NCBI RefSeq assembly: GCF_048403405.1
Contig: NZ_CP183129.1
Direction: 5' to 3' (one strand)
DNA length: 64,000 bases
Origin: Escherichia coli
GTDB taxonomy: Bacteria; Pseudomonadota; Gammaproteobacteria; Enterobacterales; Enterobacteriaceae
Part shown: positions 32,979 to 42,200 of the stretch, piece after piece
How the letters are laid out: each line of letters begins with the position of its first letter
How positions within the stretch are numbered: position 1 is the stretch's first letter
Position numbers and translations under genes: made by a program
The notes under the pieces: model-generated
Seen by the model: the letters and a program-made list of their open reading frames with translations, nothing else
The model's database searches: none
What the model was told of the DNA's origin: nothing

Positions 32979-33079
32979 TTACAGTTGCCCGATGCGTAAG
33001 CTTATAGGGGCTACGCATTGGTGCAATTTATTGAATTTTAGTTTTTTTTAGGCCGGATAAGGCGTTTATGAACTGACCA

Positions 33080-33566
<487 letters not shown>

Positions 33567-33895
33567 TTTGTTCTCCTTAATTATGTAAGGAGTATTTGAT
33601 CATGTATAAGCAATGGAAAACAGCTTTAGGTAATAAGGAATATCTCAATTATTGAATATTTAGTGCGAATTATTTAGTACAAAAAAGCAGCGTTGCGTGA
33701 TCTTTCCCTGCCCTTTATTCATAAACACATGGATATGGTGATCAACGGTGGTCTGATGGAGGCGCAGAGCCTGAGTAATCATGACTGAATTTCAGCCTTC
33801 AGAAGCCAGAAAAATGGCTTTAATACAATCGCAGCCCCGCTTTTCACAACATTATGCTTATAATATGAAAAATATCTTGCCTTGCATCTTTGTGC

Positions 33896-34375
33896 CTACG
33901 GCATTGGATGATCTTTCCCTAACCTTATAGTTTCTTTTAGCCTTTCAAGCCTTAGCAATTCAACCTCGGCTTTAATATAGCCATGTGAGGCAGCCATTTT
34001 CAGCCAATTAATTGCATTATCTAAATTATAATATTTTAAATAGGAATCATCCTCCTCTGAGGATAGAATCATAGCATAATTATATTGCGCTATGATATTT
34101 CCTTGAGATGCAGACCTTGCCAGATATTTAATTTGCTTGGGTATATTAAAGCAAACATATGTATAATATTGATGTAATCGATATGACGCATCACCATCCC
34201 CGCCCTCAGATTTAATATCAAGTTCATATCTTTGATTTTCACTTAAATTAAACGATTCAGATGTTGAGCTTATTTCAATGTTATGGAGCTTAATAGGGGG
34301 GGGGATTTCACCTCCATATGAACAACAAGAGAAAAAGAAAACATTTGCAATCAGAATAAATAAAAAGCACTTCAT
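33896..34375 (-). CDS. Sel1-like repeat protein with N-terminal signal sequence; candidate immunity protein for the adjacent orphan Rhs toxin domain
   Basis: 159-aa ORF with hydrophobic N-terminus (MKCFLFILIANVFFFSCCS) and Sel1-like repeats (..AINWLKMAASHGYIKAEVELL..); starts 13 nt after the orphan Rhs C-terminal reading frame ends, with an SD-like aaaggtgg upstream. Confidence 0.55.
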   Translation of the reverse strand: MKCFLFILIANVFFFSCCSYGGEIPPPIKLHNIEISSTSESFNLSENQRYELDIKSEGGDGDASYRLHQYYTYVCFNIPKQIKYLARSASQGNIIAQYNYAMILSSEEDDSYLKYYNLDNAINWLKMAASHGYIKAEVELLRLERLKETIRLGKDHPMP

Positions 34376-34388
34376 GTTGCCACCTTTG

Positions 34389-35385
34389 TTATTTTATATC
34401 ACTTGGTCTCATAACTTTGCCAGGAGTGGAAGAAATGGGTTGACCTGAAGGTCCAAACGTTATCCAGCGGCCCATATTATTACCAGTTATGACATTATTA
34501 CTTGTGTCAATTGCCGAGATATTATCCGTAAGTCCTGTTTGGATCGTATTAAAAAGAGGAGTATTATTATCCCACGCCATCCATACTTGCCATTGTGTAT
34601 CAGCTCCAGTGACATTTGCATGAAGTGCTCTGGCTAACTTGCTGGCAAAAGATTTATCTCCCTCTCTGGCTGTACCACATGAGAATAATCAAACAGACAT
34701 TCCCTTTTTATAGCGTGGATTAGCTCTGATTCTCTTGGCTAATCCCTCAGCAGTTTCATAGTTTCCATTTTCATCTGTAATAAAACCAGGATATCCATGT
34801 CCTCCAATAGTAAAAACGCCAGGAATATTTATTTTATCTGTTGCAGCATGCAGTGATACATTTCTGCGTATCCCCTCATCATAGAAATTCATATCAGCTA
34901 ATCCAAAAGGGTCTATATACTGAACCGGATTCAACGGATACTCATAAAAATTCCATCCCCCCTTCAGCCCAATCGAATCCTGAGTGATATACCTCCCCTG
35001 CAGCGGGTCATAATAGCGGTGGCGGTTGTAATACAGGCCGGACTCCTCATCATACTGCTGACCCGGCAGGCGGATGAGTTGCTGCAGCTGTTGCGGGTTC
35101 TCTTCATTCAGCAGGTTGCCCCATTCATCGTATTCTGCGCACCATTCTGTTGCCCCTTCCGTGCTGATAAGCACCAGCGGCAGGCCGCGATGGTCGCAGT
35201 GGTACAGGTGGATTTTTCGCGCCGGCGTGTACACCGGGTCCATCTGGTTTTGCATCTGCTTCACCGTCAGGCCGCACGATGCCAGCCAGCGGCGGCTTTC
35301 CTCACTCACCCGGTCAGCCAGGATTTCACTTTCCAGCCGGTCGAGCATCTGCACCGTGCCGGCGGGAATCCCCCACTGTGCATAG
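34389..35385 (-). pseudogene. Orphan Rhs module: about 150 codons of Rhs core 3' end, then an alternative C-terminal toxin domain interrupted by one in-frame TGA
   Basis: Track ORFs 34689..35354 (221 aa, GTG start) and 34389..34580 (63 aa) are in the same frame, separated by a single TGA at 34689-34691 (..[19 protein letters not shown]..). N-terminal part is near-identical to the main Rhs core end ([42 protein letters not shown]); sequence after the DPxGL-type motif is unrelated to the main Rhs C-terminus. Confidence 0.7.
34893..35385. repeat. About 0.49-kb direct repeat of the main rhs 3' core region (39747..40240)
   Basis: Near-identical nucleotide stretch (for example ..ccggttcagtatatagacccttttggattagc.. 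against ..ccggttcagtatatagattcaatgggactggc.., then long runs of identity through ..gtcgagcatctgcacc..); the same sequence is read antisense by track ORFs 35019..35528 and 39940..40434. Confidence 0.8.
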
Positions 35386-35395
35386 GCAACTCACG

Positions 35396-36238
35396 CTATG
35401 AACGCTTCAGCTTATCAATAGCGGAAGTTATAATTTCATTGTCATCAAACTTGTACAACATAGTATCTAAAACAGGAAGTAGCGTTTTATCACCTAATTC
35501 ACCCGCAGCTTCAATGATATCATCATAAACAGTATTTTTTTTTAACTCATCGCATAAAACAGATAAAATCCTTTTATCTTTTCTGTAGGAAAGTCCGATT
35601 ATTGCTTCAATACGGACTTCCTCATTTTTATCCTGAAGCATCTCCACAAAACAATCCCTAATATCACTATTATCATATTTATTGATATTTATTGCAAATG
35701 CGGCCCAGTTTCTGACATCTCCATTTGGATCTTTTAACAGATTAATCAATAGTGGAATTGTTGCTTTATCATTGATAACAGAAATAGCAAATGCTGTAGC
35801 ACGTCTGACATTAGTCGATTTATCAAAAGCAGTAATTTGAGATTGTTCTACTATTTTAGGTGAATAAATTGGGTTTTTCTTGCATCGCTGAGCCGTTGAC
35901 TCGATTGCCGTAGCTCGAACGCAAGCGCTCTTATCATTCAATGCCATATTGTTCAAAATATTAAACACATTATCTTTGCATTTTTTGCAAATTTTTATTT
36001 GCCCGAGTATAAATGCTCCGATATCTCTACGGATATAATTTTTATCAGAGCAGAACTCAATTGCCAATCTAACAGCGTCTTGACCACCTCTTAACTGTAA
36101 TACTCTGGCAGATGAAATCCTTTTCAAGGAATTGTGATCATCAAGTAAGCGAAATAATTCATCATCATTTAGTTTCTTACATTGATTATATAAACCATAC
36201 TCTTTACTTGCCTTTCTTTTCTGGTATGTATTTGACAT
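35396..36238 (-). CDS. HEAT-repeat protein (YibA-like, PBS-lyase HEAT-type repeats)
   Basis: Track ORF trimmed to MSNTYQKRKASKEYG.. (280 aa); repeated ..DxxVRxxAxxALG..-like helical repeats (NDKSACVRATAIES, DKSTNVRRATAFAIS, DPNGDVRNWAAFAIN, DKNEEVRIEAIIGLS). Resembles, from memory, the yibA gene that follows rhsA in K-12. Confidence 0.7.
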   Translation of the reverse strand: MSNTYQKRKASKEYGLYNQCKKLNDDELFRLLDDHNSLKRISSARVLQLRGGQDAVRLAIEFCSDKNYIRRDIGAFILGQIKICKKCKDNVFNILNNMALNDKSACVRATAIESTAQRCKKNPIYSPKIVEQSQITAFDKSTNVRRATAFAISVINDKATIPLLINLLKDPNGDVRNWAAFAININKYDNSDIRDCFVEMLQDKNEEVRIEAIIGLSYRKDKRILSVLCDELKKNTVYDDIIEAAGELGDKTLLPVLDTMLYKFDDNEIITSAIDKLKRS

Positions 36239-36342
36239 TGCAGGAACCTCCATAAAGACTATCTTTTTCTATCGTTTGACTGTCTGGAGTCCTCCACCTA
36301 CTCTGCCATCAGCACACACGATGTTTGTTTATCCTTACATAC

Positions 36343-36570
36343 TTATTTTCCGTGGCCAAAATTTAGAATTCTCCCGTCATTTTTGCCTATTTCTATAATA
36401 AAAACCCTACCAGCAATTTGGTCTGATTCAATGGTGCCTTCAACAATCCAACTTGTTGGTAATTCCATGATTTTGTATGGTTTTTCTTCTTCTGCGGCAT
36501 CATGCCCATAACGATTTTTAACATACATCTCAGCTAATTCCAATGCTATAGCTTTATTTTTACCAAATTT
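36343..36570 (-). pseudogene. N-terminally truncated paralog of the 38207..38554 secreted protein (Rhs-associated immunity-like family)
   Basis: Reading frame opens at a stop at about 36571 and uses a TTG start in the track; ..AIALELAEMYVKNRYGHDAAEEEKPYKIMELPTSWIVEG.. aligns with ..EMALELSYVYIKYIYGKEKAEFQKPYSITDDNNCWKIEG.. of the 115-aa protein but lacks its signal peptide and N-terminal region. Confidence 0.5.
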
Positions 36571-36689
36571 CTAACGGTGTATTTCCCCTCACATTCATAC
36601 TTGCGCATTATAATAATATTATTACACTGCGCCCATGTGTTGTATGTAAAAACAAAGATACAATCACATAGGTTCTGAATAATATTTTC

Positions 36690-37067
36690 TTATACGTTGT
36701 AATGTATTTTGCAAACATTAGACAATCCTTTTCCATTTATTATATCTTTCCCATGATTATCTATTGCTTTAAAATTTTCACCTATTGACCTTGAATTACT
36801 ACAATCACTTCCAGTGAAATCTGAGTTATTCAGAATAGCATTCATCAGAGCCGCATTGTGAAAGACAGCATTTCTAGTTGATGTATGTTGAATCATTACA
36901 TTTCTTAAATGAGTTTTTTCAAATTTCGCCCCATCAAGACAATAACCATTGAGGGTGGCACGATGTAGATTCATCCCGCTAAAATCATATCCAGCAAGAG
37001 TGGTACTATCTATCTCAAGAAATTTATTGGTTATTAAAAATGCGATTCTTATCATCTGTTCCTCCAA
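36690..37067 (-). CDS. Pentapeptide-repeat protein (candidate orphan immunity protein)
   Basis: 125-aa ORF with tandem pentapeptide-type repeats (..LAGYDFSGMNLHRATLNGYCLDGAKFEKTHLRNVMIQHTSTRNAVFHNAALMNAILNNSDFTGSDCSN..); AT-rich. Confidence 0.55.
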   Translation of the reverse strand: MEEQMIRIAFLITNKFLEIDSTTLAGYDFSGMNLHRATLNGYCLDGAKFEKTHLRNVMIQHTSTRNAVFHNAALMNAILNNSDFTGSDCSNSRSIGENFKAIDNHGKDIINGKGLSNVCKIHYNV

Positions 37068-37303
37068 TCATCTAACTCCTGAAAAATTTGAAAACCAGAA
37101 CCTCGCTTAGGCCTGTGTCCATACTACGTGGGTAGGATTATTCTGCGTACTACGCTGTTGTCCCTTACGTGCTGATAAGGGCTGGCAGGTTTCCGGCTTG
37201 CTTCGTTGAGTTCACTACGCTAAAGCTCCGTGTCCACATAACCCAGCTCGGAGGCATGACCTTCTCTGGTTCGTTCCATCTAAAATGTCTATAACTGACA
37301 TGG

Positions 37304-37624
37304 TTATTCAATTATTTTTTCTTTGAGTTTATTCTCAATCCAGCGGTCTTTATACCTGATGAGAATTTGACATTCACCAATATTATCAATGTCACCAACA
37401 TTTGTGTTTCGAATTTGACCAACAGCAACTATAGTTGATTCAAAACATTCAACATTGACTTTATCTGTTATTATTGAAACTATATAATCATCTGGAATGG
37501 AGCCATTAGGTATTATATTAAAGAAAGTAACATCGGTAAATACTAAATAACCATTTTCTAAGTCTTCATTATTATAAAAATTCCATTCTGTTGTACCATA
37601 GGCTATCCTTGAGATTAAATTCAC
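37304..37624 (-). CDS. Hypothetical 106-aa protein in Rhs-associated array (possible orphan immunity gene)
   Basis: ORF only; AT-rich; lies just downstream (minus strand) of a degraded Rhs core fragment; no recognisable motif. Confidence 0.35.
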   Translation of the reverse strand: MNLISRIAYGTTEWNFYNNEDLENGYLVFTDVTFFNIIPNGSIPDDYIVSIITDKVNVECFESTIVAVGQIRNTNVGDIDNIGECQILIRYKDRWIENKLKEKIIE

Positions 37625-37744
37625 CTGAATTCTAATTTGTTTGCTCCATAAATCAAATTCAATTTTTTTATTGGTCGATCACCAAGATATATTCTATCAA
37701 ACATATTACCCTCTATTCTAAAAATACTCAGGCATTCCACACAT

Positions 37745-38010
37745 TATATCAGCCTCATCTTGACTGCTTCCCGTTTCCCGATACGGCGGTGCGGGGAGTC
37801 ATAAAGGTAAGAAATTTCCAGCAGTACGGCGTCCTATTGTTCACGGCGGTAATGCACCAGCCAGTATTGGCTATCGTAGTGATAACCGTGTAATCTGCCG
37901 CCGCATCGCGTATCTAATGTTCATTCTTTTCCATAAACCGTCCGTACACATTGTGATAGTAAAAATACAATACATCTTCGCTGATGCGGTTATTCTGCTG
38001 CATGTGGGAA
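37745..38010 (-). pseudogene. Degraded Rhs core fragment (frameshifted, stop-containing vestige)
   Basis: Minus-strand translation across frames gives ..NNRISEDVLYFYYHNVYGRFMEK.. then, after a frameshift, ..YHYDSQYWLVHYRREQ..ISYLYDSPHRRIGKREAVK, paralleling the main Rhs ..[57 protein letters not shown]. Track ORF 37871..38074 is a frame artefact of this vestige. Confidence 0.55.
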
Positions 38011-38206
38011 GCGCCGAATACTGCTCCCGGTATGGCCAGTAATTACTATTTAGTACGACGTTAGGGGGAGTCACTTAATCTCACAGATACTTCAAGTAAC
38101 AGATGAAAATCGCTCCTGAAATGAAAAAGAAATTTTTTTGAATGTGTTCCTGTCAAATCAAGTGGTTTTTTCGTCGATATGTAGAGTCATATTGTACACA
38201 AAATAG

Positions 38207-38554
38207 TTATGAAACACACCTTGGTAAAATATTTGAATCGTCTGAACAGTGGATTATTTTGTGTATTACATCCAACGCTTGCCCATCTTTTTTCGCTATT
38301 AGTATTGTAAAATTTCCTCCTAACGTCTTCGGTTGTTTTCCCTCGATTTTCCAACAATTATTGTCATCTGTAATACTATATGGTTTCTGAAATTCTGCTT
38401 TTTCTTTCCCGTATATATATTTAATATAAACATATGATAATTCCAAAGCCATTTCACGACTATTTACTAAAATTTCCACTGAATTTTCTTTTCCAAATAC
38501 TGAGTGTGATATTGTAAACAATATCATAATAAGTAATATTAGTGAGTTTCTCAT
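38207..38554 (-). CDS. Small secreted protein of an Rhs-associated immunity-like family
   Basis: 115-aa ORF with signal peptide (MRNSLILLIMILFTISHSVFG); paralogous to the truncated ORF at 36343..36570. Confidence 0.5.
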   Translation of the reverse strand: MRNSLILLIMILFTISHSVFGKENSVEILVNSREMALELSYVYIKYIYGKEKAEFQKPYSITDDNNCWKIEGKQPKTLGGNFTILIAKKDGQALDVIHKIIHCSDDSNILPRCVS

Positions 38555-38722
38555 GCTCTACACCTATCGAATCTCAAAAGTTGTGGGTAAAACATTACAT
38601 TCAGAATATATGATATTCTTACCATCGGAATCCATTTTTCCAAATCGACCTTCTGGTGTTCCTGGATACCCATTAAGAACATATTTTTTCGAATAGTTAA
38701 TTTATTTTCTCAGGAAGAGATT

Positions 38723-39292
38723 TTATTTTTCTTCACTACGAAGCAGTTCATGCTGTACTTTTGTTAAACATTCGTAAGACTCATCTTTGTTCGGGAGATG
38801 TGCTGTCATTCGAGCATAAGTTGGCTTCTCATCTTTAAAATATTTAACCATGATTGAATTATCAAGGACTGCCAACAACTGAGCTGGATCACTGCTCTTT
38901 TTTTGATAGATACCCGCTCTTATATAACTTCTAAACCGATCGCCGAGAAACGCCGTTTTTTCTGCTGTATTTAGCAACTCCTGCAACGTTCCTTTGGTTG
39001 CATGATTTTCATTAAGGCGTAGTGATCCGACGCGAATTAAGAGTCTCGCCCCGCTTGGTGTGAATTTGTTATTTTTACATATACCAAGTTCTGTTTGCCA
39101 ATAATACTCACCTATGTCCTCATTCTGATACCATCTCCACATGGTTTTATTATTTAAGACAGGAAACGCGGAAAAAATAGTACCCTTAGTGAAAATGGTA
39201 AAGCAATCTTGATCTTTAGCTTGTGTTTCGCAATTAGCTATAACACCAAAACTAACGAATATCATCAGCAAAAAGAACAAAGCTCTTTTCAT
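38723..39292 (-). CDS. Candidate cognate immunity protein for the main Rhs C-terminal toxin domain (secreted, signal peptide)
   Basis: 189-aa ORF whose ATG overlaps the rhs TGA (minus-strand ATGA at 39289-39292), typical toxin-immunity translational coupling; N-terminal signal peptide [21 protein letters not shown]-rich. Confidence 0.6.
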
Positions 39293-42200
39293 TTTCTTAT
39301 TCCTCTCGATGTTCTCTGTTTCATTTTAGCTAAAATTTCACCCAAATCATCTATCCCTGCTGTTGCTGGCCCATCGGGTTTATTAATGTCTGGGAATAAA
39401 TAGGGTTCTGCACAAGTATATCCTGGTGGTAATTGAGTTGTTGGCCAAGTTGTCTGTGGCAGGTAATCACTTGCTGTCTTTGTCTCCATCCCTGGATACT
39501 GGGGATCATCCTGCGGCGTACAAGTCAGATTGGGTTTTACCCACTTCCTGCAATACAGTGTGTAATCGTAAGGACTTAATGCTCTGAAGAATGTTTTGAA
39601 AACATTAGGCGCACTACTGGCCTGGTCAATAGGATATGGCAGTCTTAATTGTTTCGCTATGTCTGGCAACTTACTTGGATCGGGCGTAGGCGGTTTGTTG
39701 GGTCTCGCTCCATATCCGCCATTATTTAAGTGTCCATATTTAGATGCCAGTCCCATTGAATCTATATACTGAACCGGATTTAACGGATACTGATAAAAAT
39801 TCCATCCCCCCTTCAGTCCAATCGGATCCTGAGTGATATACCGCCCCTGCAGCGGGTCATAATAGCGGTGGCGGTTGTAATACAGGCCTGACTCCTCATC
39901 ATACTGCTGACCCGGCAGGCGGATGAGCTGCTGCAGCTGGTGCGGGTTATCCTCACTCAGCTGGTTACCCCATTCATCGTATTCTGCGTACCATTCTGTT
40001 GCCCCTTCCGTGCTGACAAGCGCCAGCGGCAGGCCGCGATGGTCGCAGTGGTACAGGTGGATTTTTCGCGCCGGCGTGTACACCGGGTCCATCTGGTTTT
40101 GCATCTGCTCCACCGTCAGGCCGCACGATGCCAGCCAGCGGCGGCTTTCCTCACTCACCCGGTCAGCCAGGATTTCACTTTCCAGCCGGTCGAGCATCTG
40201 CACCAGCACCGGCGGGAACACCACACTGCCACCGTCTTCGCCGCCGGACTGCTGAAGCGCATCCGCCAGGCTGCGGCGCTGCGTTTTCGCCAGCTCACCG
40301 GTGGCGGTTTCGACCCTGATGAGTGGCGTGAAGCTCCCCGGCTGATAAACCGTCTGGATGCGGGTTCTGTCGTTCTGTATCGTGGTCAGCCGGTCGCCGT
40401 CCCAGCCGTACCAGGTCACTTCCGGTTTCCGTGACAGCGACATCCAGCCCGTCAGGTCCCGTTCACGCCGCCACACCCGTTTTGCCACCCTGCGGCCCAG
40501 CGGGTCGTAAAGATAGCGACTTTCGACCAGCGGCTCTGCATATTGTGTCCGCGTGTAGTGCACCAGCCGGTGCTGACTGTCGTAATGGTACCGGTGAGTC
40601 CGCTCATCATCCGTGCGGATAACCCCTTCCGGGATGAGGTCGGTTTTCTCCGTCAGCCTGCCGTGACGGTCATACCGGTAAAGATAGTGCGCGTCACGGG
40701 CGATACGGTTATCCGGCCACATGCTGAGGGTGCTGTCCGGGTGCAGCTCCGGGTCGGGCAGGCGGTTACCTGCCGGGTCTGTGGCATACGGGATGCGGAT
40801 ATCCAGATTCGCTGCCGTGGTGTGGACGCCGGTCAGCCTGCCGGAGTCGCTGTAGCTGTAACTCCGGGTCTGTCGCGGGCTGCTGATGCGGATGAGTTCG
40901 CCGTTGTCGTTCCAGGTGTAATCGCGGTCATACTGCAGGCTGTTCAGGTGCTGGCTCTGTAACTGCCCGGCAGAGGTGTAAGCGGTGGTGAGTTCATAAC
41001 GGCCGAAGCTGCGCAGCGTTTCCCGGTGCAGGCGGTCGCGGGTGAAATCCACCAGCGGTGTGTCGCCGAGTTTCATGCCTGACAGCCAGCCGCTGCCGTA
41101 GGTCAGCCATTCCACGGCGGGCAGGCTGTCCGGTATACAGCGGTTCGCCAGTCCCTGCGCGTTGTACGCATGTCTGGTTTCATGCTGCCAGAGCAGTGCT
41201 TCCGTCTGCGGGTGATGCACCGTCTGGCGCTCACCGGTCAGGCGGCCTTTCTCATCATACCCGTAATGCACCGTCACCCGGTGGCCTTCGCTGAGATGGC
41301 TGATGCCTGTCAGCCAGCCGCGTTCGTCGTACCGCCACTGTTCTGCGGTTTCACCATTCACCGTTCGCTGTGTGATGCGGTCTGCTTCGTCATAGTGCCA
41401 GTGGGTGACCAGCCCCTCATCCTCGCTGCGGATAAGTTTGCCGGTCAGGTCGTGGTGATAACGCTGTGTGCGGCCGTCAAAGCCGGTTTCCTGTATCAGC
41501 CGGTCAAGTACATCGTAACGGAAGGTGGTGTGGCTGCCGTTTTCACTGGTCAGGCGGATGACCCGCCCGGCAGCATCGTATTCCATACTGCGCGTCAGAC
41601 CGCCCTGCGTGGTACGGATGGCCTTTCCCCACGCATCGTACTGTGTCCCGTTTCTGCTGTCGTCCGGGGCAATGACGGCGGTCAGGTCACCGGCGGCGTT
41701 GTATTCATACCGCGTTTCATGGCCCTGCATGTCTTTCACCGCAATTAACTGTCCACGGCTGTCGTATGCGCGGTACTGGCTCAGGCCTTCCTCGCGGTGC
41801 ACCGTCGTCACCTGACCAAAACGGTCATGGTCATAGCGGGTTACATAACCGGAACAGTCGGTAAAGCTCAGCAACTGACCGTAACGGCTCCACGTCATGG
41901 TTTTCCGGCTGCCGGTGGCATCTTCCGTTGCGCAGGGGAAGTCACTGTGTGGATTATCATAACGGTAGCGGGTGATATCGCCGTCAGGGGCGGTTTCCTG
42001 AATCAGACGGCCGGATTCATCATATTTGCGGCGCAACTCCAGCCCGTCAGTCCCGGTGGCTGACGTTAACTGGTTGTGGTGGTTATAGTAAAATGCCGAT
42101 GCCCTGCCATCCGGTGTGGTGATGCGCGTGATGAGTCCCGTCACCACATCCGGGCTGTACTCAGTCGTCCGGCCTGCGGCATCCGTCTGTGCCTTAAGCC

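Follow-up and report, generated by a model that had tools for sequence, protein, structure and literature searches.

Strings of displaced core-plus-tip fragments, some of them interrupted by stops or frameshifts, are known from rhs loci (Jackson et al. 2009, PMC2935791). In that study the downstream fragments were about 92% identical in Serratia and belonged to the 'same clade' as the upstream gene, E. coli clade I loci were generally without dissociated tips, and core-only fragments lacking an obvious tip were recorded at E. coli position 4 in the legend of Figure 5. Clade I as defined there includes ROD9, S. bongori and Citrobacter genes (PMC2935791). Poole et al. 2011 (PMC3150448) dealt with orphan rhs-CT/rhsI modules and with their exchange, and orphan immunity arrays that result from effector replacement were described for the T6SS of Vibrio cholerae by Kirchberger et al. 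2017 (PMC5361080).

The window analysed here, a stretch of 64,000 nt from the E. coli contig NZ_CP183129.1, contains an rhs locus at the chromosomal rhsB position, flanked by nikR and yhhJ. A 100%-identical stretch is also present in strain 4621 and in others. Along the minus strand the resident rhs is followed by a YbfC-like gene, an Imm-NTF2-2 gene, the vestige that is the subject of this work, a DUF6258 gene and further remnants (Table 1), and the order then continues with a HEAT-repeat yibA-like gene, a 0.49-kb orphan core-plus-tip, a Sel1-like gene and IS remnants. The interval from the NTF2 gene to the DUF6258 gene is blank in the PGAP annotation. The initial annotation had placed a second, degraded Rhs core vestige at 37745-38010, within an array of immunity genes downstream of the main rhs, and both the vestige and this setting were borne out, with corrected boundaries. 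Taken together, the analysis makes it very probable that the vestige is a non-functional fossil, namely a 265-nt piece of a Salmonella/Citrobacter-like Rhs core lying among displaced modules, behind which the DUF6258 gene was left.

Table 1. Features of the rhs locus in the window, in minus-strand order
Feature	Coordinates	Strand	Basis or remark
Resident full-length rhs, 1399 aa	39289..43488	-	rhsB position (nikR side)
YbfC-like gene, 189 aa; presumed immunity gene of the resident toxin	38723..39292	-	Overlaps the stop of the main rhs
Imm-NTF2-2 orphan immunity gene	38207..38554	-	Pfam PF15631; directly upstream of the vestige
Rhs core vestige, Salmonella/Citrobacter-like; approximately resident Rhs aa 912-1004	37776..38034	-	tblastn, shuffles, NF041261
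Deletion junction, 6-nt microhomology AACGGG	37770..37775	-	Alignment with ETEC1748 and OkiPb01711; core references
Rhs C-terminal toxin tail, 18 codons and stop	37718..37774	-	Intact toxins of ETEC1748 and OkiPb01711
DUF6258 gene	37304..37704	-	Pfam PF19772; alignment; restored translation
Third, composite Rhs core remnant with stops	37139..37245	-	Similarity to L014 (S. enterica subsp. houtenae rhs) and the resident rhs
62-bp terminal remnant of an IS3-family element	37077..37138		Ends of annotated IS3-like elements match at about 95% identity
Chimeric ORF, 125 aa: pentapeptide-repeat gene and RhsB-CT-type tail	36690..37067	-	Pfam Pentapeptide
yhhH-like NTF2-fold immunity gene, frameshifted	36343..36720	-	Comparison with K-12

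The core fragment, its lesions and its lineage

When the resident Rhs was searched against the whole window with tblastn, residues 963-1004 matched 37896..37771 with 57% identity and residues 923-950 matched 38003..37920 with 39% identity, the two matches being collinear with a joint E of 3e-9. The initial annotation had made its call depend on the similarity being significant and had proposed a comparison with an Rhs core HMM, and both checks came out in its favour. The best HSP reached 43.9 bits, against a maximum of 26.6 bits in 2000 shuffles of the region, and the NCBIfam model NF041261 (RHS element core protein) matched the reconstructed peptide with an E of 2.9e-12 over profile positions 939-1018 of 1261. 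The generic Pfam RHS_repeat and TIGR YD-repeat models stayed below threshold on the vestige peptide, a silence that is expected of a decayed fragment.

The peptides quoted in the initial annotation are present in the minus-strand translation, and the limits of the vestige required adjustment at both ends. The 5' start lies at about 38034 rather than 38010, with an extra piece, REQYSALP, in the third frame. At the C-terminal end the quoted peptide does exist, but its Rhs part stops at 37775..37770 and the terminal EAVKMRLI, with the stop behind it, is the tail of a toxin gene read out of frame. The stops and the frameshift that had been reported were resolved, by alignment to a Salmonella-type reference, into two CAG-to-TAG stops (37916..37914 and 37836..37834) and two 1-nt deletions (near 38004 and near 37906). 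A reconstruction that invoked a 13-nt deletion, giving the peptide ..AAADYTG.., was rejected, since the Salmonella-type reference gives a single 1-nt deletion and the reading ..IRDxGGRLHGYHYD...

The vestige amounts to about 88 codons with two stops, two frameshifts and no DPxGL motif. As a significant and collinear match to a single core position it is a fragment of an Rhs core; an N-terminal domain, a full shell and the PxxxxDPxGL motif are all lacking, and it is a relic, not a gene. Its G+C content is 44-47%, compared with 60-65% in the resident core. Protein databases hold small 'proteins' from the vestige in some genomes (P0001, 55 aa; P0026, 29 aa), which are artefacts of the pseudogene, and a word-indexed protein search with the vestige peptide returned only the spurious 55-aa ORF from the vestige itself.

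The ancestry of the fragment was approached with an exhaustive HMMER search over 1.84 billion representative proteins, in which self-derived mini-ORFs were set aside when matches were ranked. The best non-self matches were Rhs proteins of Salmonella bongori, S. enterica (including subsp. houtenae), Citrobacter sedlakii and C. amalonaticus. This search overturned a 'decayed clade-I' origin, which had been based on a plasmid tblastn in which all the cores found were of the E. coli type, at 43-47%. An 'intermediate' with 63% identity, from plasmid CP044307, was likewise dropped as a frameshift-ridden assembly of another GC-rich core. The plasmid sequence (CP044307.1, 26023..26269) encodes a GC-rich Rhs core of another subfamily with about 44% identity to the resident Rhs and an 86% patch, and the frameshifts that riddle it are probably a product of uncorrected long-read assembly rather than biology.

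At the DNA level, 38034..37770 aligned with the rhs of S. enterica subsp. houtenae (L014 nt 146-412) at 76.4% identity over 267 columns, with only two 1-nt gaps and an E of 2.6e-57, whereas identity to the resident rhs, 1.3 kb upstream, was 64.5% over only 121 nt. The frameshift-repaired peptide matched the S. houtenae protein P0074 at 57/86 positions without a gap and the resident core at 38/76 positions with a 4-residue gap; across the types compared, the S. houtenae and C. sedlakii types aligned without a gap at 63-66% amino-acid identity and the E. coli types at 50-53%, again with a 4-residue gap. The vestige also shares characters specific to the Salmonella/Citrobacter-type cores. In both, the EK..YHYD linker is 4 codons shorter; the HYRREQQ and RRIGKR motifs are held in common; and at REQYPALP, upstream of NRI, the vestige agrees with the Salmonella type at 7/8 residues and with the E. 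coli type at 1/8. By none of these measures is it nearer to the E. coli cores.

Given that Salmonella/Citrobacter cores show 58-64% identity to the E. coli core overall, they represent a sister lineage of the E. coli cores; for comparison, identity to the E. coli core is 77% for the second core subfamily of E. coli and 42% for a Rahnella core. In a neighbour-joining tree of the segment of about 80 aa, the E. coli pair was joined with 100% bootstrap and the vestige fell outside it, with weak bootstrap, owing to the shortness of the segment, for the exact sister group of the vestige. At codon positions 1, 2 and 3 the vestige shares 63%, 69% and 46% of its bases with the resident core (Fisher p = 0.006), and this excess of third-position divergence indicates that much of the divergence arose before coding was lost. 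These comparisons argue for a vestige that came from a core lineage other than the resident one and then decayed, the Salmonella/Citrobacter placement being based on about 265 nt. With the best reference only 76% identical, the relic is either old or derived from a donor lineage not yet sampled. A blastn search with the vestige against 5426 complete E. coli genomes returned only copies of the vestige and no core gene, and no core gene of the vestige type at an identity of at least 80% was found in complete E. coli genomes.

The initial annotation had correctly described the vestige as standing much further from the main core than does the 0.49-kb orphan (35369..34896), which has 90% amino-acid identity, and had taken this to point to an older, independent displacement event. 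An older displacement of the same core is not borne out by the DNA comparison with the Salmonella-type and resident genes. With a different core lineage involved, age as a copy of the resident core is not enough to account for the strong divergence.

The junction, the lost toxin and the DUF6258 gene

The hexamer AACGGG (37775..37770) is common to the core (..GGGAAACGGG..) and to the toxin tail (..TCAACGGGAAGCA..), and core vestige and toxin tail are fused out of frame at this point. The out-of-frame joint accounts for the earlier reading of ..KREAVKMRLI and a stop; in the true toxin frame the sequence reads TGSSQDEADIMCGMPEYF followed by a stop, and ends at 37718. In ETEC1748 and OkiPb01711 an intact Rhs C-terminal toxin, ending ...STGSNQDEADIMCGMPEYF and a stop, precedes the DUF6258 gene (a longer stretch of the toxin C-terminus in both genomes reads ...YVEMSTGSNQDEADIMCGMPEYF and a stop). 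The window aligns with the toxin-bearing genomes from AACGGGAAGCA onwards, so that only the last 18 toxin codons and the stop remain. A microhomology-mediated deletion would be the simplest origin of such a junction. The core ends at about residue 1004 and does not run through DPxGL into a toxin, as it would in an orphan rhs-CT/rhsI module, and a small partner gene, as in such a module, directly follows the toxin stop.

In O55:H7 DEC5E the same toxin is found on a full-length Rhs, and in present-day E. coli it is carried on ordinary E. coli-type cores. The deletion may therefore lie within one module with a Salmonella-type core or span two modules. The toxin body is present in 58 of the 5426 E. 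coli genomes. The toxin domain was located at 7020..7560 of the ETEC1748 locus (L002), and also in DEC5E (L013) and in P0002-P0023. It includes a HAHAH stretch and gave no Pfam, NCBIfam or PDB sequence match. Homologues with 50-69% identity occur as fusions with N-terminal parts of the Rhs, PT-HINT and eCIS-core/DUF4157 types, and with such varied fusions and no family match the toxin looks like an uncharacterised polymorphic-toxin domain.

The original ATG of the DUF6258 gene, at 37704, lies 14 nt past the toxin stop, a spacing equal to that of the intact modules. A run of seven A residues at 37663..37669, which is A8 in intact alleles, throws the first 27 codons out of frame and leaves a residual ORF of 106 aa with a GTG start (37624..37304), which is the PGAP product. 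The identical A7 slip is present in BL21, and the full 133-aa protein is encoded in O103 ML775, in E. albertii and in the toxin-bearing strains, the tract being A8 in toxin-bearing E. coli and GA7 in the intact gene of E. albertii. Toxin tail and DUF6258 are about 5-8% diverged from the intact modules. Among DUF6258 alleles dN/dS is 0.25-0.37, a value that is not assignable specifically to the orphan state.

DUF6258 lies beside the same toxin in ETEC1748, OkiPb01711 and DEC5E, and in Rahnella sikkimica and the betaproteobacterium Diaphorobacter aerolatus it follows toxin homologues at 55-65% identity. Adjacency across genomes as distant as these supports a toxin-immunity pair, and gene context makes DUF6258, which has no match in the PDB, the putative immunity protein of the deleted toxin. 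With intact pairs elsewhere and only the toxin tail left upstream, the copy in the window would be an orphan immunity gene. The initial annotation had suggested as much for the ORF at 37304..37624, and it was right about an orphaned gene of the immunity type whose toxin is lost bar 19 codons (stop included); the ORF itself, however, is a frameshifted remainder, and the frameshift makes protection doubtful in this strain.

Neighbouring remnants, distribution and age

Several further relics surround the vestige. Upstream, the Imm-NTF2-2 gene (115 aa as called here, 66-90 aa in other strains) has no toxin or core remnant of its own detectable between the resident immunity gene and the vestige. 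Downstream of DUF6258, the third core remnant is a composite of a Salmonella-like piece (37245..37192; 54 nt, 76% identical to L014 nt 695-748) and an E. coli-like piece (37182..37139; 84% identical to resident rhs nt 3466-3509) that reads LPALIST*GTTA*YAE, asterisks being stops, with about 37 codons absent between the two. A longer form of this remnant, annotated as an RHS domain pseudogene, is present in BL21, and the sequence continues intact in E. albertii. The remnant follows DUF6258 in BL21 and E. albertii and apparently also in the toxin-bearing strains, which identifies it as the head of the next module. In the window it is cut off by the 62-bp end of an IS3-family element, matches to which occur at the ends of IS3-like elements in about 2000 E. 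coli records, plasmids included. At about 37061..37065, where the pentapeptide ORF begins, most of the closest relatives listed (e.g. WP2-W18-ESBL-10) have an IS2-like element together with a 5-bp CCTCC duplication; in the window this site is empty.

The ORF at 36690..37067 had also been put forward as a possible orphaned immunity gene, which was not supported. It is a chimera in which a truncated pentapeptide-repeat gene runs in frame into the final ~28 codons of a toxin of the K-12 RhsB-CT type (36776..36690), and PGAP records two partial pseudogenes in its place. From about 36776 on, the sequence is 88% identical to the 3' end of K-12 rhsB and then to yhhH, the yhhH homologue differing from that of K-12 by deletions of 4, 3 and 1 nt. 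With the RhsB-type tail and yhhH both retained, this is the second case within the array in which a toxin body has been deleted and its tail and partner kept.

The stretch comprising the vestige and DUF6258 was found in about 875 of 5426 complete E. coli genomes, and of the 847 genomes with the NTF2 gene and the vestige, 843 have the two linked. The block lies at rhsB in the window and at rhsC in BL21 (B strains), O157:H7 and O103, and in E. albertii NBRC 107761 the same block stands behind a different tip and immunity gene. A scan of genome contigs with narrow peptide patterns returned only the E. albertii copy. Stops, frameshifts and junction are common to BL21(DE3), O157:H7 and E. albertii. 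Some lineages have added damage of their own, a 5-nt deletion in O157 and an IS3-family insertion in O103 ML775, which is how an unconstrained relic behaves.

Between the window and BL21, divergence rises from 2.6% in the vestige through 7.5% in DUF6258 to 14% past that gene. The E. albertii vestige is 6.6% diverged from that of the window, and the relic block as a whole (37139..38701) only 3-10%, while the adjacent rhs cores have a dS of 0.23 and a dN/dS of 0.18. Either the block was exchanged between the species after the cores had split or the cores compared are not orthologous; with the vestige less diverged than the cores are at synonymous sites, its history is blurred by recombination or transfer. 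Dating through the E. albertii comparison was abandoned, as divergence along the block is mosaic, no clock applies and the relic is undatable. It can be said that the deletion and all four lesions had occurred before the block spread among E. coli and passed to, or from, E. albertii.

Origin of the relic and its place among described systems

If the vestige is the fossil of a displaced module, an illegitimate deletion across AACGGG would have joined the core piece, at a point equivalent to about residue 1004 of the resident Rhs, to the last 19 codons of the toxin. The same deletion would have removed the remaining core, the DPxGL cleavage region and the toxin body, sparing DUF6258 with its start 14 nt past the toxin stop. 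The remnant may then have decayed through the two CAG-to-TAG stops, the two 1-nt deletions and a fall in G+C from about 62% to about 46%, and in this strain the first 27 codons of DUF6258 would have been lost later through the slip from A8 to A7. NTF2 gene, vestige, DUF6258 and the next core remnant would since have been carried as one unit. Homology, junction, lesions, distribution and the pairing of toxin and DUF6258 elsewhere are direct observations; the order of events is one that we infer, as is any choice between a deletion within one module and one across two adjacent modules.

An old copy of the resident-type core, displaced by an earlier tip replacement and diverged only by neutral decay in place, would also be collinear with resident residues 923-1004, would carry stops and frameshifts, and would show a bias from G/C to A/T such as that seen among the vestige-resident differences (46 against 18). 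It is nevertheless improbable. The vestige is nearer to the Salmonella/Citrobacter cores in nucleotide identity, ungapped alignment, the linker shorter by 4 codons and REQYPALP; the fully supported E. coli pair excludes it; third codon positions have diverged more than first and second positions; and toxin tail and DUF6258 stand within about 5-8% of intact modules that ride on E. coli cores. Descent from an unrelated YD-repeat protein or another mobile element, or similarity by chance, could draw on little beyond the sub-threshold scores of the generic Pfam and TIGR models, and is effectively dismissed by the margin over the shuffles, by collinear matches that fall at a single core position whether the gene is from E. 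coli or from Salmonella, and by the strength of the DNA alignment with L014.

A present function, whether as a small protein (ORF 37871..38074), a regulatory RNA or a promoter of DUF6258, would be compatible with retention of the block in E. coli (about 875 genomes) and E. albertii, and with a divergence of 6.6% from E. albertii, below that of the neighbouring core at synonymous sites. The low divergence follows just as well from a recent exchange of the block, though, and lineages have tolerated both a 5-nt deletion and an IS3 insertion in the vestige. An Rfam scan of 33000..39400 returned no family, a promoter and terminator scan gave no excess over shuffles and no site in the vestige, and RNA folding of the vestige gave a z-score of -0.40, which is no signal; a function of this kind is very unlikely. 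Nor could the vestige serve in tip exchange. RecA-dependent recombination needs roughly 20-30 bp of identity, and exact identity with the resident rhs extends over no more than 11 nt in the vestige, compared with 94 nt in the 0.49-kb orphan, which makes the vestige unusable as a substrate, and no toxin body is left in it to load.

Beyond the fossil nature of the vestige, we tentatively raise a broader reading, which may well prove wrong. The array would preserve the only surviving E. coli traces of a Salmonella/Citrobacter-like core (38034..37776 and 37245..37192) and might have been built behind another core gene that was later wholly replaced, and the two independent deletions of a toxin body that spared tail and partner might reflect selection for, or a bias towards, immunity-only relics. 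If true, such a replacement of the core gene would be a counter-example to, or a refinement of, the rule that dissociated fragments match the lineage of the upstream gene.

For annotation, the relic is a real pseudogene remnant that PGAP leaves blank and a source of spurious small ORFs, and the 'DUF6258 family protein' called in this strain is an N-terminally truncated product. With its probable toxin partner identified, the DUF6258 family gains a testable role in immunity, and as an orphan the putative immunity gene is about 15 times as widespread in E. coli as the toxin. The relic would also record a core lineage no longer intact in E. coli, and with it rhs turnover by replacement of the core and not only of the tip. 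The general model of Rhs evolution is unchanged by it.

Compared with the described systems, the vestige resembles dissociated rhs fragments in its 5'-truncated core, its place in a low-G+C string behind a full-length rhs, its small partner gene and its lesions, and also in being common to several strains and moving between rhs positions. It differs in having lost the hyperconserved DPxGL region and nearly the whole toxin, and unlike the fragments of Jackson et al. its core is no near-copy of the resident one but only 50% identical to it in amino acids. Unlike their E. coli clade I loci, the present locus has several dissociated relics. Like the core-only fragments at E. coli position 4 the vestige has lost its tip, but here the last 19 tip codons and the partner gene survive, and with them the lost toxin can be identified. 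As in the V. cholerae orphan arrays, the immunity gene outlasts its toxin (the block in about 875 genomes, the toxin body in 58); the context, in contrast, is Rhs rather than auxiliary clusters, and the immunity gene is frameshifted here. In sequence, linker length and upstream motif the vestige is best matched by Salmonella enterica, S. bongori and Citrobacter cores (P0074, P0073, P0024 and P0027), from which it is set apart as a pseudogene fragment with only 76% nucleotide and 66% amino-acid identity. These cores may represent the branch of Jackson's clade I outside E. coli (ROD9, Citrobacter), so that the 'same clade' rule may not in fact be broken. The differences from the published generalisations are the non-resident core lineage, the long string of relics and the excision of a toxin on two occasions. 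The relic is a further member of a kind of rhs relic already described, ordinary in itself and of mildly interesting ancestry.
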